Assembly (NCBI GenBank): GCA_049512815.1
Contig: JBEKWS010000006.1
Location: forward strand, 99,398 to 163,397
Origin: Bacteroidales bacterium
GTDB lineage: Bacteria; Bacteroidota; Bacteroidia; Bacteroidales; VadinHA17
Length of the DNA stretch: 64,000 nt
Direction of reading: 5' to 3'
Position 1 is the first letter of the stretch. Each line of letters begins with the position of its first letter. The position numbers and the translations under genes were made by a program. Shown one piece after another: positions 7,265 to 50,919 of this stretch. Under the pieces are notes generated by a model that did not search any database, had not been told where the DNA came from, and saw only the letters and a program-made list of their open reading frames with translations.

Positions 7265-8848
7265 TTAATAGCCATAATTCTGAGTAAGGTTCGGGTTATT
7301 ATCTACTTCTAACTGTGGTATTGGGAGTCTTTCTGACTTACCATTCACAAAATTGTTGAAATCAGGATCACGAACCAGAAGTGCGGCCCATTCAGTAGGG
7401 TCATTCCAAGGTTTCCAACGTTTCAGATCGATCCATCTTACAGTTTCACCGCATAGCTCAAGAGATCTCTCAACCTTAAGTCTATTGAGAAAAAGAGTTT
7501 TGTCTGTACAAACATTAGCGTAAATACTGCTTTCGAGAGGAAGAAGGTTTACTTCTTTACGTTGTCTAACCCTGTTGACACACTGGATTGCCAATGCAGG
7601 GGGTGTTGTATTAAGCTGAGCTAAACACTCTGCATAACATAAAAGTACATCGGCATATCTTATAGTTCTGTAATTGATAGGTGAATAGTTATTTTCATAA
7701 GTTCTCCAATAGTCATTCTGATATTTTCTCCAGTAGTTTGAAGTAACAGTATTTGAGCCCCACTTTAGAACAGACCAGTCTTGTCCATAGATTTTTTCAC
7801 CCGGGAAATCTGTTTGAAGATTGGGATAGAAAAAATTGTCTCTCAATCTTATATCAAGACCTCCTGTAGCATTTGGTTCCTTATAATATTCGTCAAGGAT
7901 CCATCTTCTGGGCTGAGCATCGCACCATCCAATTCCTTTTATGCCAAAGTACTGAGCTCTTGCGCAACCTACATTTGAACTGGGAATGTCGTTAGAGATA
8001 CCATAAAGACCTGCAAAAACCTGGTTAACATCTGAAAATTGAATTTCAAAAACAGACTCCTTGTTGTTTTCTGTTGTGTGCTTGAAATTATCCCTGTAAT
8101 TATCCATTAAACCATAATTTATTGCACCATCACCTTCAATAAGCCAGTAGAATGCATCTTTTGCAGCCTGCCAGTTACCCATTTGCATATTTACTTTACC
8201 AAGATAAGCAAGAGCCGCTCCTTTTGTAGCACGACCTAAATCTGTACTTGCCCTGGTTGCCGGTAAATCAGCAGCAGCCTCAGTGAAATCTTCTATGCAC
8301 TGGGTAAAGACCTCTGTAAGAGTATTTTGTTTTGGAGCATCACCAGCATTCGAAGGATTAAGAACCAGAGGGACGTTTTCATAGAGGATTGCAAGGTAAA
8401 AGTAATAGAAACCTCTCAGAAATTTTGCCTGAGCTATTATATCTTTCTTCTTGCTTTCGTCAGTGAAGGTAATATTCGGAACGTTGGCAATAACCAGATT
8501 TGCACGCAAAATGGCTTTGTAATGATACTTCCATATTTGACTATTTTCGTTATAGTCATTATAGTCGCTATAAATAAAACGGGTATATTCTGCCAGATCG
8601 AGTGCGGGACTATTACTCCAGCCTTCATCCGAAGTCAGGTCATTACGAAAAAACATGTTTAATTGCCATGTACCACCTGCATAGAATGCGTGATAAACGG
8701 CATTCAGCCCCAGTGTTGCATCATTTTCTGTTTTCCAGAAGACCTGAGAAGTAGGTGTGTTGGGATTTGCCACATCGAGTAAATCTTTACTGCAGGAATA
8801 AAGAAAGCCTACTATTATGAATAATGTTAGTTTAAGTAGTTTTTTCAT
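7265..8848 (-). CDS. susD: SusD/RagB-family nutrient-binding outer-membrane lipoprotein
   Basis: 527 aa with lipobox FLYSC. It sits immediately downstream of a SusC-like gene and has typical SusD length and TPR-like composition. Confidence 0.9.
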   Translation of the reverse strand: MKKLLKLTLFIIVGFLYSCSKDLLDVANPNTPTSQVFWKTENDATLGLNAVYHAFYAGGTWQLNMFFRNDLTSDEGWSNSPALDLAEYTRFIYSDYNDYNENSQIWKYHYKAILRANLVIANVPNITFTDESKKKDIIAQAKFLRGFYYFYLAILYENVPLVLNPSNAGDAPKQNTLTEVFTQCIEDFTEAAADLPATRASTDLGRATKGAALAYLGKVNMQMGNWQAAKDAFYWLIEGDGAINYGLMDNYRDNFKHTTENNKESVFEIQFSDVNQVFAGLYGISNDIPSSNVGCARAQYFGIKGIGWCDAQPRRWILDEYYKEPNATGGLDIRLRDNFFYPNLQTDFPGEKIYGQDWSVLKWGSNTVTSNYWRKYQNDYWRTYENNYSPINYRTIRYADVLLCYAECLAQLNTTPPALAIQCVNRVRQRKEVNLLPLESSIYANVCTDKTLFLNRLKVERSLELCGETVRWIDLKRWKPWNDPTEWAALLVRDPDFNNFVNGKSERLPIPQLEVDNNPNLTQNYGY

Positions 8849-8859
8849 ATTTCATATTA

Positions 8860-11800
8860 TTAGAAAGTAACATTTACTGAGAATATTATTGTCTTGGGAT
8901 TTGGATAGGCATAGTTGTCAAGCCCTTTTTCCCAGATACTTGATCCGATAAAGTCAGGGTCCAAACCTTTATATTTGGTTAAGACTAAAAGATTCTGTCC
9001 AGTCACTGAAACACGCAGGCCATCGAAATTACTAAAGAACTTAAGTGATTTCAGGTTATAGCCAAGAGTTATCTGGCTGAGCTTATAAAATGATGCCTTT
9101 TCCAACCATCTGGTCTGATCGTACCTTCCATTCCTGGTATCTCCGTAAAGAGGCCTGGGGTTAGCAGAACTGGTGTTCGTAGGTGTCCAGTAGTCATATC
9201 CCTTTCGGGCAGCCATTTCATCCATTAACTGATCAGTTATGTAAAATAAACTATTAAATGCATCCTGTCCAAAAGAGCCATACGTGTTCATTGAGAGATC
9301 AAAATTCTTATATTCGGCATTAAGGTTAACACCAAGTTCAAACTTTGGCCAGGGGTTACCACAGATTACTCGGTCGGTACTTGTTATCTGACCATCATCA
9401 TTGGCGTCAATATATTTTTCATCCCCGGGTTTTGCGTTTGGCTGTATTACTACGCCTTTTGAATTTTTCCATGAATTTATTTCATCCTGGGTCTGGAAAA
9501 TTCCGGCCTCTTGAACCAGGTAAAACATTCCAAGAGGCTTTTCGATCTCAGTTATTGTCGTTGTAGTATAATAAGTTGTCTTGCCGTAACCGAAATCTAA
9601 AACCTTATTCCTAAGACGGGTATAGTTAACGGTAGCAGAATATTTGAAGTCTCCTACATTTTCTTTCCATGTTGCCGTCAATTCAATGCCCCTGTTTTCA
9701 AGGCTGGCAGCATTTACATAAGGGCTCCCTCCGTCATTACCGGTGCTATAGAGAATTGGAAGAGCAGTAAGAACATCCTTGGTGGTAGAGATAAAGTAAT
9801 CACCTGAAAGTTGCAGTCTGCTTTTGAGAACTGCTAAGTCAAATCCGAAGTTTTTCTGAATTTTTGTCTCCCAGTGAATATCTGAATTCACGAGTTTTAC
9901 TACGGTCATTCCGGTTTCAGTATGTTGATCAGATCCAAACACTGCAATAGGGAACGTATTAAGTGTGGATACATAATCCCAATAACCAATATTTGCATTA
10001 CCAAGCGTTCCATAGTTGGCTCTCAGTTTAAGGTCGTTAATCCAGCCTACATGGAAGAACTTTTCATTGCTCAACCTCCATCCAACTGAGATTGATGGGA
10101 AATTATCCCATTCGTTAGCCTTAGAAAATCTTGATGATCCATCACGTCTCAGAGTTAAACTTAAAAGGTACCTGTTATCATAAGAATAGTTTAGCCTTCC
10201 CAGATAAGATATAAGTACAGCTTCGCCAATAGACCCTTGAACTGTTGCGTTAGTAGTAATATTATTCAGCGTTGTATAATAATAATCCCCGATTTTTACA
10301 AGATTTTTACCTGCGGCAGTGATAATCTCATTATAATCATTCTGATAAGTAGTACCTATAATAGCATCAATATTATGCTTTCCGAATGTTCCTTTATAAT
10401 TCAGGGTGTTTTCCAGCAAAGTTGTAATTGCATTTGATTTCGATTCGGTTACTGAAGAAGCTTCAGAAGGTTGGTTAAGTTGTGTTAAACCTGATTTTAC
10501 TAAAGCTTTATAATTATTTGTGTTTGCTTCAAGACCGGCATTTAACCTGTAGGTCAGCGATTTCAAAATTTTCACATCAGTGTATACATTACCCAGGATC
10601 CTCATGTTTTTATTTGTTGATGGATGCAGATCCTCATCGCCTATAGGGTTACGGCCAAAAGAGCGGGTTGAAGTTTCCCGTCCATAACCATAACCACCAG
10701 GTTGATGTGTAGAATCACGTACAGCAATTGTTGGGATCATCCTGTAAGCATTGTAGATAGTAGCGCCATCATTTTCATTAATAAAGGTATTACTAACTAC
10801 AAGATTTTCTCCGATCTTAAAGATACCTTTTATACCTTCAGTATTAACCCTGAAATTCATACGGTTCATACTCTGTCCGTGAGCAGTTCCTGAATCATCC
10901 AGGTAATTCATAGAAACAAGATAATTGCCACCTGTGTTTCCTCCTGAGAGAGTTAAGTTATAATCCTGTAAAACTCCTGTATGAAAAACCTCCTTCAGCC
11001 AGTCGGTATCAATACCTGCCGGATGCTGTTGTCTCTGAGTCACTCCTGATATTCCATCAGCTATAGCATTATCGTAAGCCGCGTCATATAGCTTAATCCA
11101 TTCATCTCTACGTGCCTGAGCAATTAATGGCAGTTCCTGAAGACTTACCTTGCTTGAGAAATCTATCTTCATCGCCCCGCTCGAACCTTTTTTTGTGGTT
11201 ATAATGATCACCCCGTTTGCTGCTCTTGAACCATAAATGGCTGCTGCGGACGCATCCTTCAGGATCTGAATTGATTCAATGTCATAAGCGTTAAAGTCCC
11301 TGGTGGCTGTGGTGGGCACGCCATCAATTACATAAAGTGGAGTCTGAAGCGAGAAGGATCCAATCCCCCTGATTTCAATGCTCGGTTCACTACCTATAGC
11401 TCCTGAGTTTCTTACAAATACACCGGAGGCAAGTCCCTGTAAAGCTTTACCGACTGAAATGACTGGAGCGTTCTTTAGTTCATCAGATTTAATAACAGAT
11501 ACTGCACCTGTAAGGTCAGCTTTCTTTGTTGTACCGTAACCAATAACTACTACCTCTTCAAGTCCAATATTTGCTTCTGCCATTACGATATCCAGCTTTG
11601 ACTTCCCATTTAATGGAATTTCCTGCGTCGTCATTCCAAGAAAAGAAAATACAATGGTAGCGTCTTTTGGTACATTCTTCAAGGTGTAGTTTCCTGCATC
11701 ATCTGTAATAGTACCAGTGGTGGCTCCCTTTACAGCCACTGTAACACCGGCCACAGATGAACCATTTGCGCCGGTCACTTTGCCATCTACTTGCTGAATG

Positions 11801-11925
11801 TTCTGAGCATTAAGAATTAATGAACTCATTAATATTACAAATAGAAAAGCAAATCTCTTAAAAGAAAGATAAGACATTCTTAAAATGCCTGGTTTCTTCC
11901 TAACATAAACACTCTTCATTTTCAT
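8860..11925 (-). CDS. susC: SusC/RagA-family TonB-dependent outer-membrane transporter
   Basis: 1021 aa. It has a CarboxypepD_reg-like N-terminus (GKVTGANGSSVAGVTVAVKGATTGTITDDAGNYTL), a plug region and a C-terminal aromatic residue (NVTF). The true start may be the internal MSYLSF at about 11877. Confidence 0.9.
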   Translation of the reverse strand: MKMKSVYVRKKPGILRMSYLSFKRFAFLFVILMSSLILNAQNIQQVDGKVTGANGSSVAGVTVAVKGATTGTITDDAGNYTLKNVPKDATIVFSFLGMTTQEIPLNGKSKLDIVMAEANIGLEEVVVIGYGTTKKADLTGAVSVIKSDELKNAPVISVGKALQGLASGVFVRNSGAIGSEPSIEIRGIGSFSLQTPLYVIDGVPTTATRDFNAYDIESIQILKDASAAAIYGSRAANGVIIITTKKGSSGAMKIDFSSKVSLQELPLIAQARRDEWIKLYDAAYDNAIADGISGVTQRQQHPAGIDTDWLKEVFHTGVLQDYNLTLSGGNTGGNYLVSMNYLDDSGTAHGQSMNRMNFRVNTEGIKGIFKIGENLVVSNTFINENDGATIYNAYRMIPTIAVRDSTHQPGGYGYGRETSTRSFGRNPIGDEDLHPSTNKNMRILGNVYTDVKILKSLTYRLNAGLEANTNNYKALVKSGLTQLNQPSEASSVTESKSNAITTLLENTLNYKGTFGKHNIDAIIGTTYQNDYNEIITAAGKNLVKIGDYYYTTLNNITTNATVQGSIGEAVLISYLGRLNYSYDNRYLLSLTLRRDGSSRFSKANEWDNFPSISVGWRLSNEKFFHVGWINDLKLRANYGTLGNANIGYWDYVSTLNTFPIAVFGSDQHTETGMTVVKLVNSDIHWETKIQKNFGFDLAVLKSRLQLSGDYFISTTKDVLTALPILYSTGNDGGSPYVNAASLENRGIELTATWKENVGDFKYSATVNYTRLRNKVLDFGYGKTTYYTTTTITEIEKPLGMFYLVQEAGIFQTQDEINSWKNSKGVVIQPNAKPGDEKYIDANDDGQITSTDRVICGNPWPKFELGVNLNAEYKNFDLSMNTYGSFGQDAFNSLFYITDQLMDEMAARKGYDYWTPTNTSSANPRPLYGDTRNGRYDQTRWLEKASFYKLSQITLGYNLKSLKFFSNFDGLRVSVTGQNLLVLTKYKGLDPDFIGSSIWEKGLDNYAYPNPKTIIFSVNVTF

Positions 11926-12274
11926 AGATTTGATTTAAAGGTTTAAAAACATTTAATTTTGTGTATTTTTACACTTTTGGATTTTATTATTTTCAAATTC
12001 TCTATTGGTTTATTTCTTCTTTTTTTTAATATGAAACTTGATTTGCAGGTTATTACTAAATACTTACTATAAACAATCTCAGTATAAAATTATGAACTAT
12101 GGCCGATGCTATTAATAATTATCAATCAATTGCTTTTAAATATCGATTAGAAACAGACAGATTTCAGGCTTTTTATCCGAATTGAACGAAAATTAAAAGT
12201 ATTGACTAAATTATAAACTGTTTTTTGTTATGCATTTTAATAATTTGGAAAAATAAAAGTTTCCAATAAATGAT

Positions 12275-15200
12275 ATGCGACATCTAATAATATTCCTATT
12301 TATATTCTTTTGGTCATTTTCTTTAAATGCGAAGCAATTCTATTTTCGTCATTACAGGAATGAGGATGGTCTGTCAAACAATACTGTGATGGTATCTATT
12401 CAGGACAGAAGAGGCTTTATATGGTTTGGAACAAAAGAAGGACTGAACAGGTTTGACGGATATCAATTCAAGACTTACCTTAATAATCCTAACAATCCCA
12501 ATAGTCTGATAAATAACATAATAATATCACTTTGTGAAGATAAAGACGGAATTATTTGGATTGGTACGATAAATGGTATCTGTTATTTTAATCCTGATAA
12601 TGATTATTTTGGAACAATTCAGAATGAAGATATTAAAATCACAGGACTTATTCTTGATATTAAGAATGACTTTAGCAATAATATATGGATTACGACCAGG
12701 CAAGGTGTGTACAGATATAATAAGCTTGAAAACAATATCTTCTTTTATTCTGCCACTGATTATTTTCAGCCGGGTTCTATTTGTGTAACATTATCAGGCG
12801 ATATATGGATAGCATCTTCTAACGGCAATATTTATAAATATGATCCCAGAACAAATAGCTATATTAAATATAAAGTATTGAATGATAATGAGCTGTTATC
12901 TTCAACTCAACTTGTGAAAATTGTCGAAACAGAAGATAACGAATTGCTGGTTTCAACTGACAATGCAGGTCTGAGACAATTTAATCCGAGCACCGGAAAG
13001 GTGGTTACATTATTTGACAAGGATAATGAAGGGAAAGATATTATCATACTGGCAATTTTAAAAAAGAGTGAAAACGAATATTGGATTGGCTCAGAGTCGG
13101 GAATCCATATTTTTGATCTCAAAGAAGGTTTCCGTGGAACTATTCAGAAATCGACTACAAATCCATTTTCTATTACAAATAACTCTATCCGTTCAATTAT
13201 TAAAGACAGGGAAGGTGGCATTTGGATCGGTACTTTTTATGGCGGAATAAATTATCTGCCCCAGGATAATAAACCTTTTGAAAAATTTTATCCCACTAGC
13301 CTTCCCGGTTCCTTAACAGGAAATGTTGTCCGGGAGATTTGTGTAGATTCATATGGGAATATATGGGTTGGAACTGAAGATGCAGGGTTGAATAAGTTCA
13401 ATCCAAGGAACGGCATTTTTACCGGATTTACACCTGCTAGTTCTTCAAAAAGGGTTCCCAGTACAAACATACAGGGATTAATGGTAGACGGTAATAATTT
13501 ATGGATAGGTACATACGACAAAGGAATATTTATCCTCAATATCCAATCGGAAAAAATTATAAAACATTTTGAACTTAGGCTGGATAACATAGGACTTAAA
13601 ACAAATTCAATTATCACGTTTCTAAAGACGAAGGATGGAACAATTTATGTGGGAAGTGCTACCGGATTGTATCAATTCAATCGTGAGACAGAAACGTTTA
13701 CGTACCTTAACAATGTGGCTTCGGGTTGCTGGGTGCATTCTCTTCATGAAAATAACAATGGGACTATATGGATTGGCACCTATGGCAATGGGCTATTAAA
13801 ATATGACCGGTTCAGCAATACAACTAAACGCTTTTCTTATATCAGGAATGATCCCTACAGCCTCAACTCAGATTATATAACCTCTATTTATGAAGATAAT
13901 CATAATCAGATTTGGATTACCACCGAAGGGAACGGTTTTTGCTTACTGGATAGTAAAACTGAAAAATTCACAAGGTTCGTTCCGGGGAAAGAACTTAAAT
14001 GGGGAATTTATTGTTCAATACTTGAAGATGGTAATGGGATTCTCTGGATAACATCGACAAGAGGATTATTAAGTTTTGATCCTTCTACCAAACGAATAAT
14101 AATGTATACAAAAGATGATGGTTTGCTTGATAATCATTTTAGTTACAATTCCGCATATCTCGATAATACAGGAACAATGTATTTTGGAACGGTTAGTGGT
14201 TTAATTGCATTTAATCCTATTAAGATCAGGGAAAATACTTATAACACTTCGGTCTACATTACCGGATTTCAGGTAGCAGGATCGGAGTTTTTAACAAACC
14301 CAACCAATTCAGAATCTGCAAAGTCTATTCTTGAGACTAATAAAATATCCCTTGCTTATAATAAATCTTCCTTTAGTATTGATTTTGTTGCCCCCAGCTT
14401 TACCAATCCGAAAATGACGAAATACAAATATATCCTTGAAGGATCTGATAAAAACTGGGTGTTATTGCCAAATAACAGGAAAGTATATTATACCAATTTG
14501 GCACCGGGGGATTACAGATTCAAGGTAATGGCGTCTATCGGAGATAATTTATGGAGTGAAAAGGGGGCTTTTCTTGAAATTAAAATTTTTCCACCAATAT
14601 GGTTGTCTGTTCCCGTTTATTTAATATACCTGGTAATCTTCCTGTCTGTTGTTATATTCACAATACATTTCTTCGCAAAAAGAAACAGGTTAGAGCATCA
14701 GCGAAAGATAGACAGACTTGAAAGTGAAAAGGAGATGGAGATACTTAATGCAAAAATCAGCTTTTTTACAAATATTACACATGAGATACGCACACCACTG
14801 ACTTTAATAAAAGGACCATTGGAAAGAATTTTTCAATCCGGTATAAATTCAGATACAATCGAAGAGAACCTCTCAATAATCAACAAAAATACCGACAGGT
14901 TATTGGAACTTACAAACCAATTGCTTGATTTCCGTAAAGCCGAGAAGGAGATTTTTAAACTGAATTTCGTACATACAGATATTTGTGAGTTAATTGAATC
15001 GACTTTCAATCTCTTTTTACCTGGAAGTCTCGAAAAAAACATCTCTTTTCAGATGCATTCCCAGGTAAAACAGTATCCTTTGGCTGTTGACAGGGAGACA
15101 TTGATCAAGATAATCAGTAACCTGTTATCGAATGCCCTTAAATTTGCAGATACAAGCGTAGATCTCTATCTTGAACCTGATACTCCTGATAACAGGAGTT

Positions 15201-16288
15201 TACGGATTCGGGTAAACAGTGATGGGAGACTAATACCTCCTGATTATAGTGAGAAAATATTTGAGCCATTCTTCCAGTTGACACCTGAACAATCTGGTAA
15301 ATCTCGTAAAGGGACAGGTCTTGGATTGGCACTGGCGCGTTCTCTTGCAGAACTTCACCAGGGTAAACTTTTTCTTGATAAGGAGGTTAATCATTTAAAC
15401 TCCTTTGTTCTGGAACTTCCGAAAACTCAGGAAGAATCATTTGTGCTGAATCAGAATTTGCCTGAAAACGGATTAAAAGAAGAACGCCATGAGTATGAGA
15501 TCTTTGGAAATATGAATTGCTCCCGACCAAATATCCTTCTTGTGGAAGATGAAAAGGAGATGGGAATATTTATTTCAAAAGAACTGTCACATGAATACAA
15601 TATAATATTGGCATCAAATGGTGCGGAAGCAATCAAAGTGCTAAGTAATTATGTGATCAATCTGGTTGTCAGCGATGTTATTATGCCTGTGATGGACGGA
15701 TATGAATTATGTAGTCAAATAAAGAATAATATTGAATTCAGCCATATACCGTTAATTCTTCTTACTGCTACGATAAACCTTAATGCCCGTATTGAGGGAC
15801 TCGATGCTGGGGCAGATGCATATATTGAAAAACCGTTCTCTACAAACCTGCTTCTGGCACAGATTTCAAATCTTCTAAAAAATAGGGATCTGGAACGACA
15901 GAACTTTTTAGAATCTCCACTTGCTCATATTAAGACACTAACTATGAATAAAACGGATGAGGAATTTATGAAAAAACTACATTCAAATATAATGACAAAG
16001 ATGACAGAACCAGATTTTCATATAGAAACGATAGCAAATATGATGGGTATAAGTATCTCAACCTTATATAGAAAAGTTAAAGCACTAACTGATCTTAATA
16101 CAGTTGAATACATTCGATTTTACAAATTAAAAAAAGCTGCAAAACTGTTATCTCAAGGAGAGTATCGGATAGATGAAATATCCTATCTTGTTGGATTTTC
16201 TTCACCTTCATATTTTGCAACAAGCTTTCACAAGCAGTTTGGCATTTCTCCCTCAGAGTTCCTAAAACAAACTAAAAATAATCAATAA
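12275..16288 (+). CDS. Hybrid two-component system sensor kinase/response regulator with AraC-type HTH (HTCS)
   Basis: 1337 aa. It has periplasmic beta-propeller repeats, a TM segment (PPIWLSVPVYLIYLVIFLSVVIF) and the H-box FFTNITHEIRTPLTLI. The ATPase G-box is GTGLGLALARSLAELHQG, the receiver is ILLVEDEKEM...VVSDVIMPVMDG, and the C-terminal AraC HTH is SPSYFATSFHKQFGISPSEF. Confidence 0.9.
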   Translation: MRHLIIFLFIFFWSFSLNAKQFYFRHYRNEDGLSNNTVMVSIQDRRGFIWFGTKEGLNRFDGYQFKTYLNNPNNPNSLINNIIISLCEDKDGIIWIGTINGICYFNPDNDYFGTIQNEDIKITGLILDIKNDFSNNIWITTRQGVYRYNKLENNIFFYSATDYFQPGSICVTLSGDIWIASSNGNIYKYDPRTNSYIKYKVLNDNELLSSTQLVKIVETEDNELLVSTDNAGLRQFNPSTGKVVTLFDKDNEGKDIIILAILKKSENEYWIGSESGIHIFDLKEGFRGTIQKSTTNPFSITNNSIRSIIKDREGGIWIGTFYGGINYLPQDNKPFEKFYPTSLPGSLTGNVVREICVDSYGNIWVGTEDAGLNKFNPRNGIFTGFTPASSSKRVPSTNIQGLMVDGNNLWIGTYDKGIFILNIQSEKIIKHFELRLDNIGLKTNSIITFLKTKDGTIYVGSATGLYQFNRETETFTYLNNVASGCWVHSLHENNNGTIWIGTYGNGLLKYDRFSNTTKRFSYIRNDPYSLNSDYITSIYEDNHNQIWITTEGNGFCLLDSKTEKFTRFVPGKELKWGIYCSILEDGNGILWITSTRGLLSFDPSTKRIIMYTKDDGLLDNHFSYNSAYLDNTGTMYFGTVSGLIAFNPIKIRENTYNTSVYITGFQVAGSEFLTNPTNSESAKSILETNKISLAYNKSSFSIDFVAPSFTNPKMTKYKYILEGSDKNWVLLPNNRKVYYTNLAPGDYRFKVMASIGDNLWSEKGAFLEIKIFPPIWLSVPVYLIYLVIFLSVVIFTIHFFAKRNRLEHQRKIDRLESEKEMEILNAKISFFTNITHEIRTPLTLIKGPLERIFQSGINSDTIEENLSIINKNTDRLLELTNQLLDFRKAEKEIFKLNFVHTDICELIESTFNLFLPGSLEKNISFQMHSQVKQYPLAVDRETLIKIISNLLSNALKFADTSVDLYLEPDTPDNRSLRIRVNSDGRLIPPDYSEKIFEPFFQLTPEQSGKSRKGTGLGLALARSLAELHQGKLFLDKEVNHLNSFVLELPKTQEESFVLNQNLPENGLKEERHEYEIFGNMNCSRPNILLVEDEKEMGIFISKELSHEYNIILASNGAEAIKVLSNYVINLVVSDVIMPVMDGYELCSQIKNNIEFSHIPLILLTATINLNARIEGLDAGADAYIEKPFSTNLLLAQISNLLKNRDLERQNFLESPLAHIKTLTMNKTDEEFMKKLHSNIMTKMTEPDFHIETIANMMGISISTLYRKVKALTDLNTVEYIRFYKLKKAAKLLSQGEYRIDEISYLVGFSSPSYFATSFHKQFGISPSEFLKQTKNNQ

Positions 16289-19542: not shown

Positions 19543-19558
19543 TACTTACTATTGTATG

Positions 19559-19931: not shown

Positions 19932-21230
19932 TTAGTTTTGAGAAATAATCTCTTTTGATTTATGGGCCAGACTTAATACGTTCCATGTATTGTCCATGAC
20001 TTGGCTTTTGAAAGCATCTGTAATCTTTAAGTATTTTCTCAAATCCTTTTCCTTTTTAGGAGCTCCCATATCCTGTAATGCTTTTATGTTTACCCCTAAC
20101 ATGATGCTATTTGTAATAAAGGTTTTTCTGGCCGTGTGGTATGTAATAGCTTCATATAGTGGAAGAGATTCTTCCGTTGTTTCACTTCCTATTACAGTTT
20201 TTTTTATCACCCGCCTATTAAATCCAGTATTTGGCAATTGCTTTAAAGCAATAGTTTTGCAACATTCCTTAATGTATTCGTTGATATTTTGAATAGACAT
20301 TTTGGGAAGAGGATTTTCATCCCTCTCATATTTTTTAAGTATTTCGAGAGCAAAGTTGTTTAGAGGCAAGGTTTTAACATAACCTGTTTTGACTTGTGTT
20401 TTAGTTAACAGCTTATTGTTTATATGTTCACGTTTCAATGAAACCACATCGCTGTAACGAAGCCCGATAAAGGAAGCAAAGCAATATAAATCACGAACTT
20501 TTTTTAATCGATTTGTATCAAAGTTATAATCCAATAATACTAGTAGTTCATCCATACTCAAAAAAACAACCTCTTTTTCAGGTTCTTCAACTTTTAGTTT
20601 ATCATAAATTTTATCATGATAATAGTTCCGTTCTTCAGCCCAATGAAGAAATGTTGATAGGACTCTTGTAATCTTGGCATAATATCCAAGTTGTTTCTTT
20701 TCAGTTAAGAACGTGAATTTCTTAAGTTTATCAATAAAGTTAACATTAATATTCTCCCAGGTTAAAGTATACTTTGTAGCTACTTGAAATCGAATTATGA
20801 AGTTTTTTACAGTAGTATATCCTTTTATCGTACGTTCAGCTTTATCCGATTTGTTTGATTCAATAAAATCGCTGAAAACATCCATTACTGAAGTTGATTT
20901 AAGCACAGTGGATACTTCAGGAATATTGAGAAGATTTGTCAACTCAAACTCTGAAGGATTCCTTCTTTCCTTTGTAACCTTATTGAATAATAATTTGGCC
21001 TGGGATTCAACCTCATCGATAAATGAGTTCATTTTTGAGTTATCATCATAGTCTTTTTCTGATAGAGAAGTAAGCCTTAACCGCTGGTTTCTTTTATTCC
21101 AATCACGAATTCGCACTTTCCCCAACTTCATTCTATAGGACTTATATTCGCTTGTGATTTGAGCCAGGAGAGAAACCTTTCCTTGTTTATCAAGCTTTTC
21201 TGATTTAAGATAAAATACGATTTGTGCCAT
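19932..21230 (-). CDS. Tyrosine site-specific recombinase/integrase (Bacteroidota type with N-terminal arm-binding domain)
   Basis: 432 aa. The N-terminus MAQIVFYLKSEKLDKQGKVSLLAQI is typical of this class. The catalytic region contains LRYSDV and YHTARKTFITNSIMLGVNIKALQDMG. The last motif around the catalytic Tyr is atypical (KDLRKYLKIT). Confidence 0.85.
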   Translation of the reverse strand: MAQIVFYLKSEKLDKQGKVSLLAQITSEYKSYRMKLGKVRIRDWNKRNQRLRLTSLSEKDYDDNSKMNSFIDEVESQAKLLFNKVTKERRNPSEFELTNLLNIPEVSTVLKSTSVMDVFSDFIESNKSDKAERTIKGYTTVKNFIIRFQVATKYTLTWENINVNFIDKLKKFTFLTEKKQLGYYAKITRVLSTFLHWAEERNYYHDKIYDKLKVEEPEKEVVFLSMDELLVLLDYNFDTNRLKKVRDLYCFASFIGLRYSDVVSLKREHINNKLLTKTQVKTGYVKTLPLNNFALEILKKYERDENPLPKMSIQNINEYIKECCKTIALKQLPNTGFNRRVIKKTVIGSETTEESLPLYEAITYHTARKTFITNSIMLGVNIKALQDMGAPKKEKDLRKYLKITDAFKSQVMDNTWNVLSLAHKSKEIISQN

Positions 21231-21265
21231 AATTGAGTGTTTTATACCTCTTTAAGTAAATAAAA

Positions 21266-21291
21266 AGTAGGTGCTAATTAGGTGCTAATAA
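21266..21291 (+). repeat. 26-bp direct repeat AGTAGGTGCTAATTAGGTGCTAATAA (tandem GGTGCTAAT half-sites), copy 1
   Basis: Lies 36 nt upstream of the integrase start. It matches 24924..24949 at 25 of 26 positions. Confidence 0.85.
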
Positions 21292-21748: not shown

Positions 21749-24433
21749 CTAACTCAACTGGGCAACCCATTCCAGCGGTTCGTGCCGGCCAATCTTCAAA
21801 TGTATTTTCACCGGCATTTTCTCAGGCAGGTGCAGATCGCAGTTGGCCTTGCCTTTCTGGAGCGCAGCCGTTAAAACTCCGGCAGGTGCCGAGATTTCCT
21901 CTATTCCATGCCGGACAATCAATGTGATGTCTTGCTTTCTCACCGAGGTGATCGTTACGTCCACGGTCCGCGCTTCCATGTCCCAGGCCAGTTTGTCGAT
22001 CCTCGCGAAGGTACGGGCAAGCATCCCGTTAATCGATCCCTTTAACAGCGAGGGAGGAAGTGCGGGAAGCAGCTCAATCACACCGGGGCGCGAGTAGGCA
22101 AGCATTTCCATCATGATTGCGGGAATCCCGCCCTGTGCATCCGGCTGGGGCGCAATGTAGGGGTCATGAGAACTCCTAAGCGTTGTACCGATGTAGCCCT
22201 GCTCAATCAGTTGCCGCAGCTCGGTATCCACCATGAAGTTGTCTTTGAGCCGTGCCCCAACCAAAGCGCGATGGCAGCGACCATGAGCCGCCAGCCTCTC
22301 CGGCACGCGCCTCCTGTCGGCCATCATCGCGGCCCGGGCAAGTTGCGGTGTACGATCCGGATCAATTTCGTCGCCTGGCCAGGCCCCATAAAGATGAGAA
22401 ATATGCCGATGGCTGTAACGCTCTTGCAGCGTGGGCCAAGCCCATTCCTTCATGGTGCCGTCCGGTTCGAGCATGTAGGGCGGAAACTTCGCCAGCATCG
22501 CCTTCCATTTCGACACGCTGTCGGCGTCGGTGCCCAGGATCTCCGAAGCCTGGATCAAATTGGCCAGCACTTCCCTGCACACCGCGATGTCCATGCTGGC
22601 GTTGATCACCATCATGCCCGAAGGGCCCGTGTTCCCGGGATTGTTCTCCGGCGAGAAGGATGGGGCGAAGATGTATTTCCCATCTTTGTCGGTGACCGTC
22701 AGGAAATCCTCGTAAAACAGCGCCAGCTCTTTATATGCTGGCACCATGCGATTGCGGAGGAATTCCAGGTCCCCCGTTACCAGGTAGTGATCCCAGAACG
22801 GGCGTAAACACCAGCCACCAGCGGAAATCCAATAGGGATGAGGCCATATCTCCCCGGACGAAGCGCTGTTGGAGTAATGGAACGCAACGCCGATCCCTTT
22901 GTCTGGCATGAGGGAATAATGTGTGCCGCGCATCCCGTAGATATTCTTTGCGTTAACCCGGAAGTCCGGGGCTAAGCTCTCCATCCAATTGAAGTAGGCA
23001 TCCATGCCTTCCCGGTGATCGCCCTGCACGCCGGGCGCTATCTGCAGGTTGATATTGGCATTGACCTCGTACGACATGGTGGGATACTTGCCGCTGGTGA
23101 GGATGAACCAATATCGTCCCATTTCGAATATCTTCTCCAGCAAGGCGGGCGAATAGTCCGGCCTCGACCTCTGATTGGCCAGAAGTTCCTCAGAAGACAA
23201 TCCATATTGAGAGGCACCGCCGAAATCGACGGTGACGCGGTTGAGGGCCTCAGACTGGACCTTGCGGTGCCGCTCCACCATTGCCTGATAGTCGGGCGTG
23301 AGTTGTTCCACCGCCAGCCGCAGAGCTTCAACCTTGTCCTCGCTATAGTCGGCGAACCATTCGATGCGAGTGAGAAGCATCACTGACGACGCATTCTCGA
23401 TGACCAGAGTGCCATCTTCCATCCGGGCTGAGCCGCCGTTGCGAACCACACGGATCACCCCGGCGTAGCCGCTGTTGTCTGTGGAAGGATCCAAACGGCA
23501 CTTGTAAATAAGTCGTTGCTCGTTAAAGTCGTGCTGAATTTCGCTTTCCCCGCTACGAGCAATCCCTCGGTTCATTCCCTGGAACGCCGCATCGGGGCGC
23601 ATTCTACTCACGTTATCCAACAGTGCGATTCGGGCATTCACCGATTGTCCTTTCGGGGCGGTGAGCAATTGGACCACGACGTTGTCGGGCCGGGACGTGA
23701 AAGTCTGACGAAGCCATTCACCGCGCTCATCGTTCCAATAGATCTTTGCCTCACTGCTCTCGAAATCGACAGTGCGGAGATAGTCCTTGACCAATGCGGT
23801 TTTCGGAAAATCGAGACTCATCCGAAAAGCCGGGATTGTGAAGTGCCCAAATGTATTCATCTTTATGGGGCCCTTCTCCATTTCCTTGTAAGCGAATTCA
23901 ATAGCTTCGCGGTATTTCCCGTCCATTACCATTTGCCGCACTTGTGGGAATATGTCCGCGGCCTTTGGAGCTTCGAGGGGCCTTTTCCATGGCATAAGCA
24001 GACTTTCATGATGGAAGAGAATCTGTTCCGAGTACGGATCGCACGTCATCTCGATATTCATCGCCCCATTGCCGGAGGTGAGACCCTCGTTGACTGTCGC
24101 GCCGGGCGCGATACTGCAAAAGCCCCGCCGCGGTACAATGTTCCGCTTGAGCCTTTCCGCAAGAGACATTGGCGAGACCTGTACAGCAGGTGACTGATAC
24201 GATTCCGCGAATACCGGCGGTCCTGGCAAATACTTATCCGCCCGCGCGCGACGAAGATACTCGGCGGAACGGATCTCCTCCTGTGTCGCTCCTGATGGAC
24301 CTGAAATCTGGTTGGGAATCTCGGATGGCTTTAGGGGACTTTCTTCGGCTGTCGTGAACAGCGAGTACGACTTTAGAGAACTAAATAGACCGGCAGCAAC
24401 CGCGCCTGTCTTAACAAAATTTCTGCGCTTCAT
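21749..24433 (-). CDS. GH95-like glycoside hydrolase with Tat signal, GC-rich paralog 1
   Basis: 894 aa with a twin-arginine motif (MKRRNFVKTGAVAAG). GH95-like blocks are SGNGAMNIEM...ESLLMPW, NANINLQ, HRHISHLYGAWPGDEI and IPAIMMEMLAYSRPGVIELLPALP. Confidence 0.75.
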   Translation of the reverse strand: MKRRNFVKTGAVAAGLFSSLKSYSLFTTAEESPLKPSEIPNQISGPSGATQEEIRSAEYLRRARADKYLPGPPVFAESYQSPAVQVSPMSLAERLKRNIVPRRGFCSIAPGATVNEGLTSGNGAMNIEMTCDPYSEQILFHHESLLMPWKRPLEAPKAADIFPQVRQMVMDGKYREAIEFAYKEMEKGPIKMNTFGHFTIPAFRMSLDFPKTALVKDYLRTVDFESSEAKIYWNDERGEWLRQTFTSRPDNVVVQLLTAPKGQSVNARIALLDNVSRMRPDAAFQGMNRGIARSGESEIQHDFNEQRLIYKCRLDPSTDNSGYAGVIRVVRNGGSARMEDGTLVIENASSVMLLTRIEWFADYSEDKVEALRLAVEQLTPDYQAMVERHRKVQSEALNRVTVDFGGASQYGLSSEELLANQRSRPDYSPALLEKIFEMGRYWFILTSGKYPTMSYEVNANINLQIAPGVQGDHREGMDAYFNWMESLAPDFRVNAKNIYGMRGTHYSLMPDKGIGVAFHYSNSASSGEIWPHPYWISAGGWCLRPFWDHYLVTGDLEFLRNRMVPAYKELALFYEDFLTVTDKDGKYIFAPSFSPENNPGNTGPSGMMVINASMDIAVCREVLANLIQASEILGTDADSVSKWKAMLAKFPPYMLEPDGTMKEWAWPTLQERYSHRHISHLYGAWPGDEIDPDRTPQLARAAMMADRRRVPERLAAHGRCHRALVGARLKDNFMVDTELRQLIEQGYIGTTLRSSHDPYIAPQPDAQGGIPAIMMEMLAYSRPGVIELLPALPPSLLKGSINGMLARTFARIDKLAWDMEARTVDVTITSVRKQDITLIVRHGIEEISAPAGVLTAALQKGKANCDLHLPEKMPVKIHLKIGRHEPLEWVAQLS

Positions 24434-24918: not shown

Positions 24919-24923
24919 CATTT

Positions 24924-24949
24924 AGTAGGTGCTAATCAGGTGCTAATAA
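24924..24949 (+). repeat. 26-bp direct repeat AGTAGGTGCTAATCAGGTGCTAATAA, copy 2
   Basis: Matches 21266..21291 at 25 of 26 positions. The right flanks are also related: ACTCAAA, then ATGAAGTC versus ATGAATGTC (24989..25000). Confidence 0.85.
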
Positions 24950-25433
24950 ATATTTTTGTAGAAACTCAAAATTGACTTATTTTTGATGATGAATGTCAAT
25001 ATGAGTAAAATGTAATTTAAAGAGTTACTGGAAGAGTATATTTCAAATCTCGAAAAGGATCATGATACTAATCAAAAAGAGAACAGTAATCATCCTGTTT
25101 TTTCTTTGATTCAGAACACGTACCAAAAGTTTAAAAACAAATAATCTTATAGGAAGTTAGGCTTTGCCCTCACGTTTTTCTTATTCTGTATTATATATTT
25201 AGCTATCACAATAGTCTTTCTTTCACTCCCTCTGGCTTTCTTCATAGTATTTTCTTTTTTGATTCTACCGTTTTTTCATTTAGTTGTAACTAAACTCATT
25301 AAAACGCCAGATTTAGTTGATATTACAAGTTTAGGAGATAGAATATTACTAGTAAGAGTAAAGATAAAAAACTTTGATTTTGATTACTTGGTGGTGGACA
25401 GTTTTAATATATTTACAAATAAAAAGATAATCA

Positions 25434-30724: not shown

Positions 30725-30730
30725 TTACTA

Positions 30731-42646: not shown

Positions 42647-44389
42647 ATGAGAAGACTCTGTTTTTTAATTACTGCAGCCCTGATTTTGGCAGAAGTTGTA
42701 GCTGCCGGTCAGGATTCTTCTTCAAAAAGTAAAGTAATTACCAAAACCGACATTGAAAAGGCAGGTAGCTCAATCCCGGTTTCAGCTATCGGAGAACCGG
42801 TTGGCTCGGTCAAACTCTATACTCCACGCTGGGTTGAAGCAACCGATGCCACGCCTGCATACGCTGTTGTTGAAGGTTCAATTTTCCCGGTAGATCCTAA
42901 TGGCTGGCCCATTAATTTCCGGGTGCTTCTTCCAGCAAGCTGGTCGCACCGTGCCATGCAAGCTGGTGGTGGAGGCATGAATGGATCGATCACTGTCAGG
43001 GAAGGTAAAAATCCGATGATCAATAAGGGATTTGTGATGTATGGCAGTGACTCAGGCCACCAGGGAGGAATGGGTGGCGGTGGTACAGTTCTGGCTTCCG
43101 GTCCTGCAGGAGCTAAACCTGATGACTGGGCTCTCAACAAAGAGGCCATCCGCAATCTTGGTTATATGCAAATGAAGAAGACTCACGATGCCGCAATGGT
43201 AATAATTGAAAGAATTTATGGAGAACGGCCCCGATTCAACTATTATGTTGGAGGTTCACAGGGTGGACGCGAAGGGCTTATGGTTGCACAAAGATACCCT
43301 GCTGATTATAACGGCATAATATCCGATGTTCCGATAGTCAGCTTTTCAACACTTATGCTCGCCCCTGAATTGATAAGGATACAGGAAAAACCATTGGCAA
43401 ACTGGGTGACACCTGCCAAGGTTAATGCAATCAGGGCTGAGTTCCTGAGACAATGTGACAAACTTGACGGATTGTCTGATGGGATAATCAATAACTATAT
43501 GGCGTCACGTGCTATCTTTGATGTAACAGACGGTTCTGGCCCTGTTGATCCATGGGCAGCCCTGCGTGAGGCAAACAGTAAGGATCCAAAACCTGAAGAT
43601 AATTCAACATCGGCAAGGCTCACCAATGAACAGATTAAGACACTTGAATTTGTCTATAGTCTGTATAAGTTCCCATCTCCACTTGCAAATGGTGTTAAAT
43701 CGTTCGGTATGTGGCTTCCGACTACCGATCCTGAATCTTTTGGGACGGTTACCCCTAATCGGTACAAAGGACAGGAAGGTGCACGTGAGAACGCTCCGGT
43801 ACATTCATCCCTGGGAGTTCTTGGAGTAACCGGGTTCCTGATGCAGAATCTATCAGCTAATCCACTGGACTATGCCGAAGGAAAAGCCATGAATGAACGC
43901 CGGAAACAGATATCCGAATGGCTCGATGCCACAGATCCAGATCTTAGTGCATTTTATAAACATGGAGGGAAAATAATACTTACGGTCGGCACACAGGATT
44001 TTATAGCCTCTTCCGGTGCACAGCTTGATTACTATCAGTCATTGATAAATAAGATGGGACAGAAGAAACTGGATAAGTTTGCGCGGTTGTATGTTGTTCC
44101 ACAGGCAGGCCACGGATTATCAGGCAAGAGTTATAAGATGAACGGGGATGGCGAAACGGTTGAAGTAAAAAACATTCCATCACCAAACTCCAATGACAAA
44201 ATGGATATGATAATATCATGGGTTGAAGAAGGCAGCGCTCCTGCGAAAACACTTGTTGTCAGCCCCGATGGGCGAATTGGAGTAAAACCCGAAGGTAAAG
44301 GATATATTCTTTGCTCATATCCGAACTATCCAAGGTATGTGGGAGGACCGCAAGATCAGGTATCTTCGTATATCAGCTCATCGAAATAA
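42647..44389 (+). CDS. Tannase/feruloyl-esterase-family serine hydrolase
   Basis: 580 aa with a signal peptide. The block GGSQGGREGLMVAQRYPADYNGIISDVP matches the family nucleophile region. Confidence 0.8.
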   Translation: MRRLCFLITAALILAEVVAAGQDSSSKSKVITKTDIEKAGSSIPVSAIGEPVGSVKLYTPRWVEATDATPAYAVVEGSIFPVDPNGWPINFRVLLPASWSHRAMQAGGGGMNGSITVREGKNPMINKGFVMYGSDSGHQGGMGGGGTVLASGPAGAKPDDWALNKEAIRNLGYMQMKKTHDAAMVIIERIYGERPRFNYYVGGSQGGREGLMVAQRYPADYNGIISDVPIVSFSTLMLAPELIRIQEKPLANWVTPAKVNAIRAEFLRQCDKLDGLSDGIINNYMASRAIFDVTDGSGPVDPWAALREANSKDPKPEDNSTSARLTNEQIKTLEFVYSLYKFPSPLANGVKSFGMWLPTTDPESFGTVTPNRYKGQEGARENAPVHSSLGVLGVTGFLMQNLSANPLDYAEGKAMNERRKQISEWLDATDPDLSAFYKHGGKIILTVGTQDFIASSGAQLDYYQSLINKMGQKKLDKFARLYVVPQAGHGLSGKSYKMNGDGETVEVKNIPSPNSNDKMDMIISWVEEGSAPAKTLVVSPDGRIGVKPEGKGYILCSYPNYPRYVGGPQDQVSSYISSSK

Positions 44390-47311: not shown

Positions 47312-47341
47312 ATATATATTTTTTTGATTTTTTCTTGTTGA

Positions 47342-50014: not shown

Positions 50015-50121
50015 AATTACCTCTTTATGTTTATTTTGAATTTATTAATTGGATACAATGTTTTGACCACAACTATATTATGACTTTGAGTAAAACAAAA
50101 TTCAAAGGATGAATAAAAAAC
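50012..50121. repeat. Duplicated upstream leader/promoter region of the GH95-like genes, copy 2
   Basis: Near-identical to 24431..24540. The candidate -7 box is at 50070..50077. Confidence 0.8.
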
Positions 50122-50336
50122 AATTCGAAAATTAAATAAATTTTTTGGGGAAAGAAAACAGATATTAAAAAATTAAATTTAGTCTCCCTCCCATTGGAGA
50201 TCTATCTCTGTTTTTATAAATGAATCGTTCGGAAAAAAGTTTATATTTTGTTAGCAACCTGATTTTTTAACAGGCAAACGTCTTTACAATCAAAAATCTG
50301 GAATACCTTTTTGCCGGATATAACAAGCCAAAAAAT

Positions 50337-50702
50337 ATGGTTGCTCCTTTTAACCTTTCCGGGCTTGTTACTATTGAACACTTATTAATTTTGAATATTG
50401 TAAACAATTACACAACCACCCATATTCAGAAGGGAAGAGGAAAACCTGATCATAATGAATGGAGGGGGAAAAAAGTATATATCGATACATTTGCATCCTG
50501 GTGCAGGCCATGGAAATCTGAATTTAAATTTACCAAAGAGCTTACAGAATTGCTTGAATCCAAAAATATTGCCAGTCTCTATATCTCACTGGATCAGAAA
50601 AGTGAAACTCTGAATTGTAAGGATATTATTAGGTTTTACAGTTTGAAAGGTCATCATATCCTTGCCGCCAAACAACTTGCGGAGGATGTTCATAAATGGT
50701 AA
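50337..50702 (+). pseudogene. Thioredoxin-fold (TlpA/ResA-like) relic lacking signal peptide, CxxC motif and C-terminus
   Basis: GKKVYIDTFASWCRPWKSEFKFTKEL...YISLDQ resembles the family pattern GK..L.DFWASWCGPC. The second Cys is replaced (CRPW). The 5' end of the ORF is repeat copy G. Confidence 0.4.
50339..50367 (+). repeat. GGTTGCAAC-box intergenic repeat, copy G (degenerate)
   Basis: GGTTGCTCCTTTTAACCTTTCCGGGCTTG. About 95 nt upstream of it is also homologous to the region upstream of copy C. Confidence 0.5.
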
Positions 50703-50919
50703 AAAGTATTGATTGACAAATAGTTAGTCCTTATTATATTTAATTTTTAGTGGACACTAATGATATATTATTTGATTTCACAAAATAATTCATTAGTTGA
50801 TGTTTGAATTAACCGGTAGTAATGGGATCTCCCTCTCTCCTAAATAGCATATAACGTAGGAATTACTCATCCCTTAAAATGAATTCTTAAATAACGAAAT
50901 TTAAAATTCAGGAATGGTT

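Follow-up and report, generated by a model that had tools for sequence, protein, structure and literature searches.

The window analysed here, a 64,000-nt stretch of contig JBEKWS010000006.1 from a Bacteroidales bacterium, contains three long genes, all on the minus strand and named W1, W2 and W3, which encode proteins of glycoside hydrolase family 95 (GH95) with a twin-arginine translocation (Tat) signal motif. Taken together, our data make it probable that these genes represent three old lineages of a single Tat-GH95 clade, which is of high-GC origin, has been transferred repeatedly into low-GC hosts and would act in the trimming of polysaccharide side chains. The three genes are:

21749..24433, minus strand: W1, a type-1 Tat-GH95 of 894 aa, with the RR motif at residues 3-8, N458-A-N460-I-N462, SPEN at 594-597 and PDAQGG at 764-769
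44594..47311, minus strand: W2, a type-2 Tat-GH95 of 905 aa and the downstream gene of a two-gene cassette, with N464-S-T466-I-N468, SPEN at 597-600 and PDAQGG at 776-781
47342..50014, minus strand: W3, a type-3 Tat-GH95 of 890 aa and the upstream gene of the cassette, with the RR motif at residues 3-8, the lipobox LTAC at 26-29 and N455-A-N457-I-N459

All three proteins matched the Pfam architecture GH65N_2 + GH95_cat + GH95_C (PF14498 + PF22124 + PF21307), with E values of 1e-50 to 1e-62. W1 passed the Pfam cut-offs for all three domains, and the C-terminal domain of W2 (26.7 bits) and W3 (17.9 bits) fell just under the threshold of 27.6 bits; no NCBIfam model matched W1, W2 or W3. The nearest solved structures by sequence were all GH95 proteins (8ZBV, 2RDY, 7KMQ, 4UFC and FucOB, with E values of 1e-29 to 1e-48 for the closest six), and AfcA was matched at about 1e-10 to 1e-11. 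An AlphaFold2 model of W1 (pLDDT 63, pTM 0.64), which was used for the fold only and not for residue geometry as its active-site loops are disordered or of low confidence, showed a β-sandwich, a helical barrel and a second β-sandwich in this order. The best 15 Foldseek matches of this model were all GH95 structures (target-normalised TM-score 0.62-0.75, 17-23% identity), followed by GH139 and GH65. Sequence identity was 26-28% to canonical GH95 profiles and 17-23% to solved GH95 structures. Thus, Pfam architecture, fold and the kept catalytic Glu and Asp (see below) identify W1-W3 as true GH95 proteins, W2 being a member by descent and fold with a non-canonical catalytic set. The initial annotation, made from the sequence alone, had called them divergent GH95-like enzymes, which agrees with the domain architecture, the top 15 structural matches and the catalytic residues as to the family, and with the 17-28% identity to characterised GH95s as to the divergence. 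The conserved sequence blocks that it listed do exist, but each exact string is found in only two or three of W1-W3.

The composition of these genes sets them apart from the rest of the window. The GC content of W1, W2 and W3 was 0.557, 0.540 and 0.553, respectively, and the GC content at third codon positions (GC3) was 0.661, 0.616 and 0.629, whereas the remaining 25 open reading frames (ORFs) of at least 200 aa had a GC of 0.33-0.46 and a GC3 of 0.25-0.42. With a host GC3 of 0.353 on average (sd 0.06), the values of 0.62-0.66 for W1-W3 fall outside the host range. Overall GC was 0.550 within the three genes and 0.389 in the rest of the window, and in synonymous codon usage W1-W3 were at a distance of 1.31-1.58 from the rest of the window, compared to 0.45-1.06 for the other ORFs. 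With 100-nt windows, steps in GC were found at 21749, 24433, 44594 and 50014, which are the ORF ends to within 100 nt, and GC also dropped in the 100-nt window 47294-47393, containing the 30-nt spacer between W3 and W2. GC, GC3 and codon-usage distance therefore confirmed the earlier description of the genes as compositional islands in AT-rich DNA that are bounded by the ORF ends, and on recount all four 60-nt G+C values given with it (43, 32, 22 and 14) were exact. Open alternative frames are most dense in W1-W3 (3.4-4.4 per kb) and mostly longest there (182-253 aa), an expected by-product of their being GC-rich; the statement that only these genes carry long alternative-frame ORFs was overstated, as such frames reach up to 3.1 per kb and 197 aa elsewhere in the window.

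For phylogenetic analysis, 80 loci (designated by L-numbers) were fetched from species-representative genomes, and every long ORF in them was compared with W1-W3. In a neighbour-joining tree of 116 sequences (29 of type 1, 43 of type 2 and 44 of type 3), types 1, 2 and 3 were each monophyletic, with bootstrap values of 64, 100 and 100, respectively. W1-W3 share 63-70% identity with one another (synonymous divergence, dS, 0.81-1.10), whereas orthologs of each type are 80-89% identical; the closest relatives elsewhere are 80-86% identical to W1 and 88-89% to W2, and a search for a near-identical donor of W2 gave nothing over 88-89% identity. The lower identity between the paralogs than to their orthologs and their placement in separate clades indicate that W1-W3 are not local duplicates. 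All 38 of the 38 complete pairs have type 3 followed by type 2 on the same strand, mostly with a spacer of 21-34 nt, in hosts from at least six phyla, including Verrucomicrobiota, Acidobacteriota, Planctomycetota, a Chloroflexota metagenome-assembled genome (MAG), Ignavibacteriales and many Bacteroidales; type 1, the lineage of W1, usually occurs singly. These data show that W3-W2 is an old conserved two-gene cassette and that W1 is a separate third lineage.

The initial annotation had instead proposed acquisition from a high-GC donor followed by amplification within the locus. A single acquisition with subsequent duplication would account for the similar GC of the three genes (0.54-0.56), the Tat motif common to them and the tandem arrangement of two of them. 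It is extremely unlikely given that the paralogs (63-70%, dS 0.81-1.10) are more distant than the orthologs elsewhere (80-89%), that each type forms its own clade, that the type 3-type 2 tandem recurs in 38 other loci of Verrucomicrobiota, Acidobacteriota, Planctomycetota, Chloroflexota and the Fibrobacterota-Chlorobiota-Bacteroidota (FCB) group, and that W1 is synonymously as near to type-2 and type-3 genes from one Verrucomicrobiales genome as to W2 and W3. The amplification step is not supported by these data.

Two further features belong to the cassette in the window:

47312..47341, minus strand: spacer between W3 and W2, 30 nt, operon-like
50015..50919, no strand assigned: AT-rich non-coding region upstream of W3, GC 0.23-0.38 in 100-nt windows

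The upstream region presumably holds the cassette promoter. Evidence for movement of the cassette came from L048 and L080, which share a 5.8-kb segment of 97.7% identity which begins ~270 bp before type 3 and ends ~135 bp after type 2, so that the AT-rich upstream ~270 bp moved with the genes. The flanks of this segment are rearranged and 72-80% identical with dS >2.6, while the dS of the pair is 0.03-0.09. A near-identical cassette in unrelated flanks indicates that the cassette itself is the mobile unit. In the window, neither direct or inverted repeats of at least 11 nt flanking W3-W2 nor mobility genes at the flanks of the pair were found. An IS-type transposase gene (HTH_Tnp_1 + rve) lies at 1-1110 of L083, ~6 kb upstream of the cassette, and none of this kind is present near the pair in the window.

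Synonymous divergence between copies in different phyla was then compared. W1 differs from a Pirellulales copy by a dS of 0.37 (86% nucleotide identity), from a copy on an 821-kb Acidobacteriota contig by 0.46 and from Ignavibacteriota copies by 0.60-0.73; W2 and W3 differ from copies in Verrucomicrobiae and on a 5.3-Mb Solibacteraceae contig by 0.85-0.98, and the full range of cross-phylum dS is 0.37-1.26. To control for shared codon bias, same-codon identity at identical residues was compared with a null obtained by shuffling codons within each amino acid, and it exceeded this null in all cross-phylum comparisons with z = 9-26, except for the Alphaproteobacteria copy (z = 3.2). Synonymous similarity between types 1-3 was also above the null (z 10-15) and equal within and between genomes. 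Gene conversion within genomes was excluded as its cause, as type-2 and type-3 genes from one Verrucomicrobiales genome resemble W1 no less than W2 and W3 do. These data indicate that the clade spread recently and horizontally over at least eight phyla.

Constraint on synonymous sites was considered as another cause of low cross-phylum dS and was excluded by flank controls in syntenic pairs. Clade dS and flank dS were 0.43-0.44 and 0.36-0.68 in L041/L046, 0.44-0.57 and 0.38 in L034/L043, and 0.03-0.04 and 0.02 in L037/L040. Because clade dS equals that of the flanks in these relatives, the synonymous rate of the clade is ordinary and not specially constrained.

The composition of clade genes was further examined across hosts. 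Clade genes equal their flanks in GC (difference ~0) where host GC is 57-65%, and mostly exceed them by 0.03 to 0.11 where it is below ~50%. In most low-GC loci, the GC3 of clade genes tops that of every other ORF (z 2-8), including the adjacent canonical GH95, and in high-GC hosts their z is ~0. The window copies have the largest GC3 excess seen (+0.26 to +0.31). Among low-GC hosts, GC3 excess rises with identity to homologs from high-GC hosts (Spearman 0.66 and 0.56), as expected for an amelioration series, with the reservation that this correlation is phylogenetically non-independent and partly circular, amino-acid composition itself following GC. Some FCB members (L075, L077 and L079) are fully ameliorated. 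Moreover, among polarised synonymous changes in the pair, those from GC to AT were in significant excess on the branches of L083 and L084, where the adjacent tannase gene is balanced. A polarisation on a three-taxon star tree, in which the window pair appeared to be at compositional equilibrium, was dropped because a root on that branch reverses the polarities, and the analysis was repeated with outgroups.

It could be argued that W1-W3 are long-resident native Bacteroidales genes, with high GC3 and low dS kept up by biased gene conversion or by selection at synonymous sites (for codon usage, mRNA structure or an overlapping function) and not caused by transfer. Indeed, GC3 excess extends across the whole FCB clade of 27-28 members, the window branch is without clear GC-to-AT bias, and Tat substrates could, as a speculation, need special translation kinetics. 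Such an origin is nonetheless very unlikely in view of the agreement of clade dS with that of flanking genes in syntenic relatives, the strong GC-to-AT drift on the L083 and L084 branches, the complete amelioration in L075, L077 and L079, the near-identical cassette in the unrelated flanks of L048 and L080, and the host-like composition of the genes in high-GC hosts. We therefore favour a high-GC origin of the clade with repeated transfer into low-GC lineages.

Within this history, the path into the lineage of the window can be followed for W2 and W3, which lie inside FCB-only clades with bootstrap 100. The FCB-only clades and the Bacteroidales-type lipobox of W3 together indicate that the immediate source of W2 and W3 was another FCB-group (Bacteroidota-lineage) bacterium and that the jump between phyla predates them. 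Hence, the high-GC donor suggested in the initial annotation is in keeping with the foreign composition of the genes and their being at home in high-GC hosts, but does not describe the immediate source of W2 and W3. W1 groups with soil MAGs labelled 'Bacteroidota bacterium' (flank GC 0.47-0.57) and with copies from Ignavibacteriota and from one MAG each of Chitinophagaceae, Pirellulales and Acidobacteriota, with bootstrap 76.

In two further contigs, L083 and L084, type 3, type 2 and a convergent tannase gene are arranged as in the window, with a flank GC of 0.41-0.45 and a pair GC of 0.52-0.54. The tannase gene is:

42647..44389, plus strand: tannase/feruloyl-esterase gene (Pfam), convergent with W2, GC3 0.39; at 12718-14460 in L083 and 8966-10708 in L084

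Between the window and L083, dS was 0.17 for the tannase gene, 0.35 for type 2 and 0.49 for type 3, and 1.05 and 0.81 for the unlinked GH3 and PQQ-like genes. The gene is a recurrent companion of the cassette: it travels together with it in related Bacteroidales, and homologs adjoin the pair in two Solibacteraceae loci. The window tannase has a GC1 of 0.546 and a GC2 of 0.446, as high as in the GH95 genes, with a host-like GC3 of 0.39; it may be an older co-acquired gene in which amelioration is finished.

Sharp breaks in composition at gene edges in metagenome-derived sequence might also arise from assembly chimeras or contaminating reads. The sister strain L081, an independent assembly with a W1 98% identical to that of the window, is collinear at 98.8% through both W1 junctions, which rules out a chimeric assembly there. 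Furthermore, in L083 and L084 the pair independently stands beside the same tannase gene in low-GC surroundings, low-GC flanks also border it on dozens of Bacteroidales MAG contigs of up to 4.4 Mb, and the lipobox of W3 occurs in our sample only on Bacteroidales-type type-3 copies. We regard an artefact of this kind as hardly conceivable.

The surroundings of W1 contain features of possible relevance to mobility:

19932..21230, minus strand: tyrosine integrase gene (Pfam Arm-DNA-bind_5, SAM_5 and Phage_integrase), directly downstream of W1
21264..21291, plus strand: AGTAGGTGCTAATTAGGTGCTAATAA, left copy of a direct repeat of 27 nt that lies upstream of the integrase gene, 35 nt from its start codon
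21411..21470, minus strand: terminator-like hairpin downstream of W1, a GC-rich inverted repeat followed by a T-run, read from the sequence by eye
24923..24950, plus strand: right copy of the 27-nt direct repeat, 26/27 identical to the left copy

The repeat has the consensus AGTAGGTGCTAAT[T/C]AGGTGCTAATAA, and within each copy an 11-mer occurs twice in tandem; 6 matches of this 11-mer were found where 0.99 were expected, a number reached in 0 of 100 shuffles. The two copies bracket W1, the terminator-like hairpin and the upstream region, ~3.7 kb in all. Of the other fetched loci only L081 has the repeat, likewise at both places; the integrase gene has a decayed remnant at the same place in L081 and is absent from the 83 other loci. 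As a general vehicle of the clade, the integrase and the repeat were excluded, being confined to the window and its sister strain. They could still mark a small integrase-borne element that had W1 as cargo, as the integrase gene is directly downstream of W1, one repeat copy lies upstream of it and the synteny with L081 breaks just beyond the repeat. This is possible but doubtful: the integrase gene is outside the repeat-bounded segment, neither it nor the repeat was found beside any type-1 gene other than those of the window and L081, no tRNA gene that could serve as integration target is present in the window, and no empty site was found. The repeat may serve as an att-like or arm-type site, or else bind a regulator.

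The region between the regulator of the locus (see below) and W1, 16289-21230, has a low GC of 0.31-0.37. It includes an AbiEii toxin-family ORF (17885-18499), whose Pfam match starts at profile position 95 and which is preceded by a 63-aa ORF, so it may be truncated or frameshifted, and an unannotated ORF of 266 aa (18742-19542). At this place L081 has FecR and a SusC-like gene, and of the integrase gene only the remnant.

To compare the active sites, the motifs of the clade were aligned with those of characterised enzymes. The general acid of GH95 enzymes, Glu566 in AfcA and Glu501 in BoGH95A, is located in an S-P-E motif. In AfcA, the inverting catalytic set consists of Glu566 as the acid, Asn421, Asn423 and Asp766; the family motif is [His419 in AfcA/Thr370 in BoGH95A]-x-Asn-x-Asn together with the acid Glu, and the His/Thr position has been proposed to determine specificity for L-fucose or L-galactose (Rogowski et al. 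2015, PMC4491172). The register of the motif was set by profile-profile alignment (hhalign) with five canonical GH95s that adjoin the pair and have the motif KYTxNINxEMNYWP, and plain HMMER pairwise alignments to PDB chains were dropped, as they gave three different registers at the Asn-x-Asn motif.

The His/Thr specificity position, two before the first Asn, is Asn in 114 of the 116 clade members, with two type-2 exceptions (Ser and Asp). N-x-N-x-N is kept in all type-1 (29/29) and type-3 (44/44) proteins. In type 2 the first catalytic Asn is never present, being replaced by Thr in 41 of 43 proteins and by Ala or Ser in the other two, and at the second catalytic position 33 have Asn and 10 have Asp. 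The acid Glu of SPEN, which aligns to SPEN of canonical GH95s in hhalign, is present in W1-W3 and in all of the commonest variants of each type, and so is the Asp of PDAQGG, which aligns to canonical QIDGN. In the segment corresponding to canonical MNYW, YW is deleted throughout the clade.

Three cysteines, Cys106, Cys619 and Cys720 in W1 numbering (in RGFCS, VCREV and RCHRAL), are at least 97% conserved in each of the types, and the canonical GH95 consensus lacks them; Cys754 and Cys865 of W1 are mostly conserved. In the window, the codons of the first three are:

24116-24118, minus strand: codon of W1 Cys106
22577-22579, minus strand: codon of W1 Cys619
22274-22276, minus strand: codon of W1 Cys720

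The N-termini of W1-W3, MKRRNFVKTGAVAAGL, MKRRKFVKTSAAVAGL and MKRRVFLKKGAVAAGM, all read MKRR(N/K/V)F(V/L)K, an S/T-R-R-x-F-L-K-like motif followed by a hydrophobic stretch. The RR motif was found in 116 of 116 clade members and in none of 19 other window proteins examined, whose N-termini are of the Sec or lipoprotein type. Among the window proteins examined, the Tat motif is thus limited to W1-W3, as had been noted, and, judged from the N-terminal sequences, is a trait of the whole clade rather than of this locus. Its occurrence in all members predicts export as a folded protein. The lipobox LTAC of W3 (Cys29) is common to 12 other type-3 proteins, all from Bacteroidales-type (Bacteroidota) hosts in our sample, and makes W3 a probable Tat-exported lipoprotein. 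Candidate reasons for folded export are a cofactor, the conserved cysteines and oligomer assembly; the cysteines could bear on the invariant use of Tat through a metal, a cofactor or redox-sensitive folding.

The locus as a whole is a Bacteroidota polysaccharide utilisation locus (PUL), with SusC/SusD, a hybrid two-component system (HTCS) regulator and clustered carbohydrate-active enzymes (CAZymes). The PUL core (7265..16288, both strands, Pfam) consists of:

7265-8848, minus strand: SusD
8860-11925, minus strand: SusC
12275-16288, plus strand: hybrid two-component regulator

This core marks the host as Bacteroidota; the best named homologs of the HTCS are from Bacteroidales and only 59-62% identical. 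The CAZymes and esterases of the PUL are two GH51-like proteins, CE1, two CE15, GH2, GH3, GH106, GH78, the tannase, a GH35-like protein and SASA. Across phyla, recurrent neighbours of the clade are canonical GH95 (25 loci), GH3-PA14 (24), carboxylesterase (20), GH29 (18), GH97 (12) and GH31 (11), and further CE1, GH43-CBM6, GH2, GH51-like, GH10, GH54 and tannase. This neighbour set corresponds to a toolkit for hemicellulose side chains, and the clade therefore probably acts in the periplasm, where it would trim alpha-L-sugar caps from the side chains of complex hemicelluloses.

Canonical GH95 genes directly adjoin Tat-GH95 genes in 25 loci (including L046, L049, L067, L075, L077 and L040, at 8204-10627 of the last), and none is present in the window. 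Their products are ~26% identical to the clade, carry the motif KYTxNINxEMNYWP and have a Sec-type N-terminus in the representative examined; canonical and Tat-GH95 proteins presumably differ in specificity. GH29 is a frequent neighbour outside Bacteroidales (18 loci), and the one examined (L040, 517-2229) has the RR N-terminus MQRRDFCK, which suggests that Tat export of fucosidase-type enzymes is common in the presumed donor phyla.

Several further features of the PUL were also observed. The tandem GH51-like genes (2714-4828 and 4989-7154; 704 and 721 aa), with a weak Pfam match to the ASD1 domain, form a second paralog pair, of host-like composition. A GH2 gene is split into the overlapping ORFs 27752-28498 and 28437-30308, and its L081 orthologue is intact (851 aa, 98.8% nucleotide identity), so the split reflects either a frameshifted pseudogene or an error of assembly. 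The CE15+CBM9 gene at 25434-27695 is intact in the window and split in L081. A 5.4-kb segment (30339-35706) with a GH2 gene (30731-33229) and a GH3 gene (33597-35738) is absent from the otherwise collinear L081 and represents a recent insertion or deletion in the PUL.

Based on these data, we propose the following model. In composition, the clade fits bacteria of soil and peat with a high GC (Acidobacteriota, Verrucomicrobiota and others), and recent, repeated transfer into low-GC lineages has left partly ameliorated GC-rich islands, of which the window copies are the least ameliorated seen. W2 and W3 came via other FCB-group bacteria and already adjoined the tannase gene before the split from L083 and L084. 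W1-W3 would fold in the cytoplasm and be exported through Tat to the periplasm, where W3 would then be lipid-anchored at Cys29. There they may act as inverting exo-alpha-L-glycosidases that remove terminal L-fucose, L-galactose or related caps from oligosaccharides of feruloylated glucuronoarabinoxylan or of xyloglucan-type side chains imported by SusC/D. The feruloyl and glucuronoyl esterases, arabinofuranosidases, GH2/GH3/GH35 enzymes and rhamnosidases encoded nearby would be their partners. Of these points, family, composition, phylogeny, transfer and motifs are established by the data, and the export route, substrate and activity are predictions.

Several points weigh against this model. 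As to function, the Asn at the specificity position matches neither fucosidases nor L-galactosidases, so the sugar removed is a guess; type 2, without one catalytic Asn, may not be a hydrolase; the AlphaFold2 model is of moderate confidence overall (pLDDT 63) and of low confidence where the active-site loops lie; and no characterised member of the clade was found in the literature. As to history, besides the non-independence of the correlation between GC3 and identity, the direction of transfer rests on composition and not on tree rooting, and the polarised counts on the window's own branch are small and mixed (14:8, 15:5, 7:7 and 14:1). In addition, the pair dS between the window and L083 (0.35-0.49) is greater than that of the tannase gene (0.17), which needs faster non-equilibrium change or allele replacement. 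The taxon labels are those of MAG bins, in which a short contig such as L008 (20 kb) might be misplaced; we repeated the key comparisons with contigs of 160 kb to 5.3 Mb.

A more specific proposal, which we put forward as speculative and on balance unlikely, is that type 3 and type 2 form a two-subunit GH95 machine that is assembled in the cytoplasm, exported folded through Tat and directed at a hemicellulose cap with a sugar specificity new to GH95, given the Asn in place of the His/Thr determinant. If so, type 3 would be the catalytically complete subunit, lipid-anchored in Bacteroidales, and type 2 the one with a replaced water-activating Asn. Such an assembly would account for the constancy of the Tat signal across eight phyla, and the benefit drawn from a recalcitrant side-chain cap would drive the rapid spread between phyla in soils and sediments.

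GH95 is a small and sparsely characterised family, and our literature search found nothing that links it to Tat signals or describes this clade, of which over 1,200 homologs can be found in public data. What is new here is a Tat-signal GH95 clade with Asn at the specificity position, a paralog pair in which one member has an altered catalytic set, and their recent spread across phyla. The current labels, 'alpha-L-fucosidase 2' and 'GH N-terminal domain-containing protein', probably mis-state the function of the clade, which should hold new enzymology for complex side chains of plant cell walls. With hosts at different stages and unsaturated synonymous sites, the clade is also a natural system for measuring amelioration rates and for following how Bacteroidota PULs take up foreign enzymes, for example by gain of a lipobox.

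Among characterised GH95 enzymes, BoGH95A (BACOVA_03438, PDB 4UFC), which belongs to the complex-xylan locus PUL-XylL of Bacteroides ovatus, is a top Foldseek match (TM-score 0.73-0.74) with the same fold. It resembles the clade in being a periplasmic enzyme of a Bacteroidota hemicellulose PUL, of which the GH31, GH97, GH43, GH10, GH3 and esterase components also neighbour the clade elsewhere, and in the acid Glu and Asn-x-Asn/Asp apparatus common to types 1 and 3. Different from BoGH95A, to which they are ~20% identical, clade members have Asn in place of Thr370, have lost YW of the MNYW segment, carry an N-terminal extension of 80-110 aa and the conserved cysteines, and in the case of types 2 and 3 occur with a partner paralog, which BoGH95A does not. 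The signal of BoGH95A is of the Sec type, whereas that of the clade is of the Tat type. In Bacteroides ovatus, PUL-XylL contains GH31, GH97 and GH95, and its GH95 is an alpha-L-galactosidase acting on corn xylan (PMC4491172), a gene content that resembles the recurrent neighbours of the clade.

AfcA, the 1,2-alpha-L-fucosidase of Bifidobacterium bifidum (2EAB) and founder of GH95, shares with the clade the three domains and, in types 1 and 3, the equivalents of Glu566, Asn421, Asn423 and Asp766. Unlike the clade, to which it is 17-18% identical, it has His419 where the clade has Asn, acts on host glycans and milk oligosaccharides and has no Tat signal; type 2 is moreover without an equivalent of Asn421. 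The closest enzymes by both sequence (E 1e-38 to 1e-48) and structure (TM-score 0.74-0.75) are Xac1774 (7KMQ) from the xyloglucan locus of Xanthomonas citri and the GH95 of Pontiella sulfatireligans (8ZBV). Both are fucosidases for side chains of plant or algal polysaccharides, but they are 21-23% identical to the window proteins and fall outside the clade, and to our knowledge neither has a paired-paralog arrangement. Finally, the clade is similar to transferred CAZyme genes and PUL cargo in Bacteroidota in its atypical composition, patchy distribution and conflict between phylogeny and taxonomy. Different from these, what moved here is a bare cassette of one or two genes and not a whole PUL or conjugative element, and it is found in at least eight phyla with dS still unsaturated.

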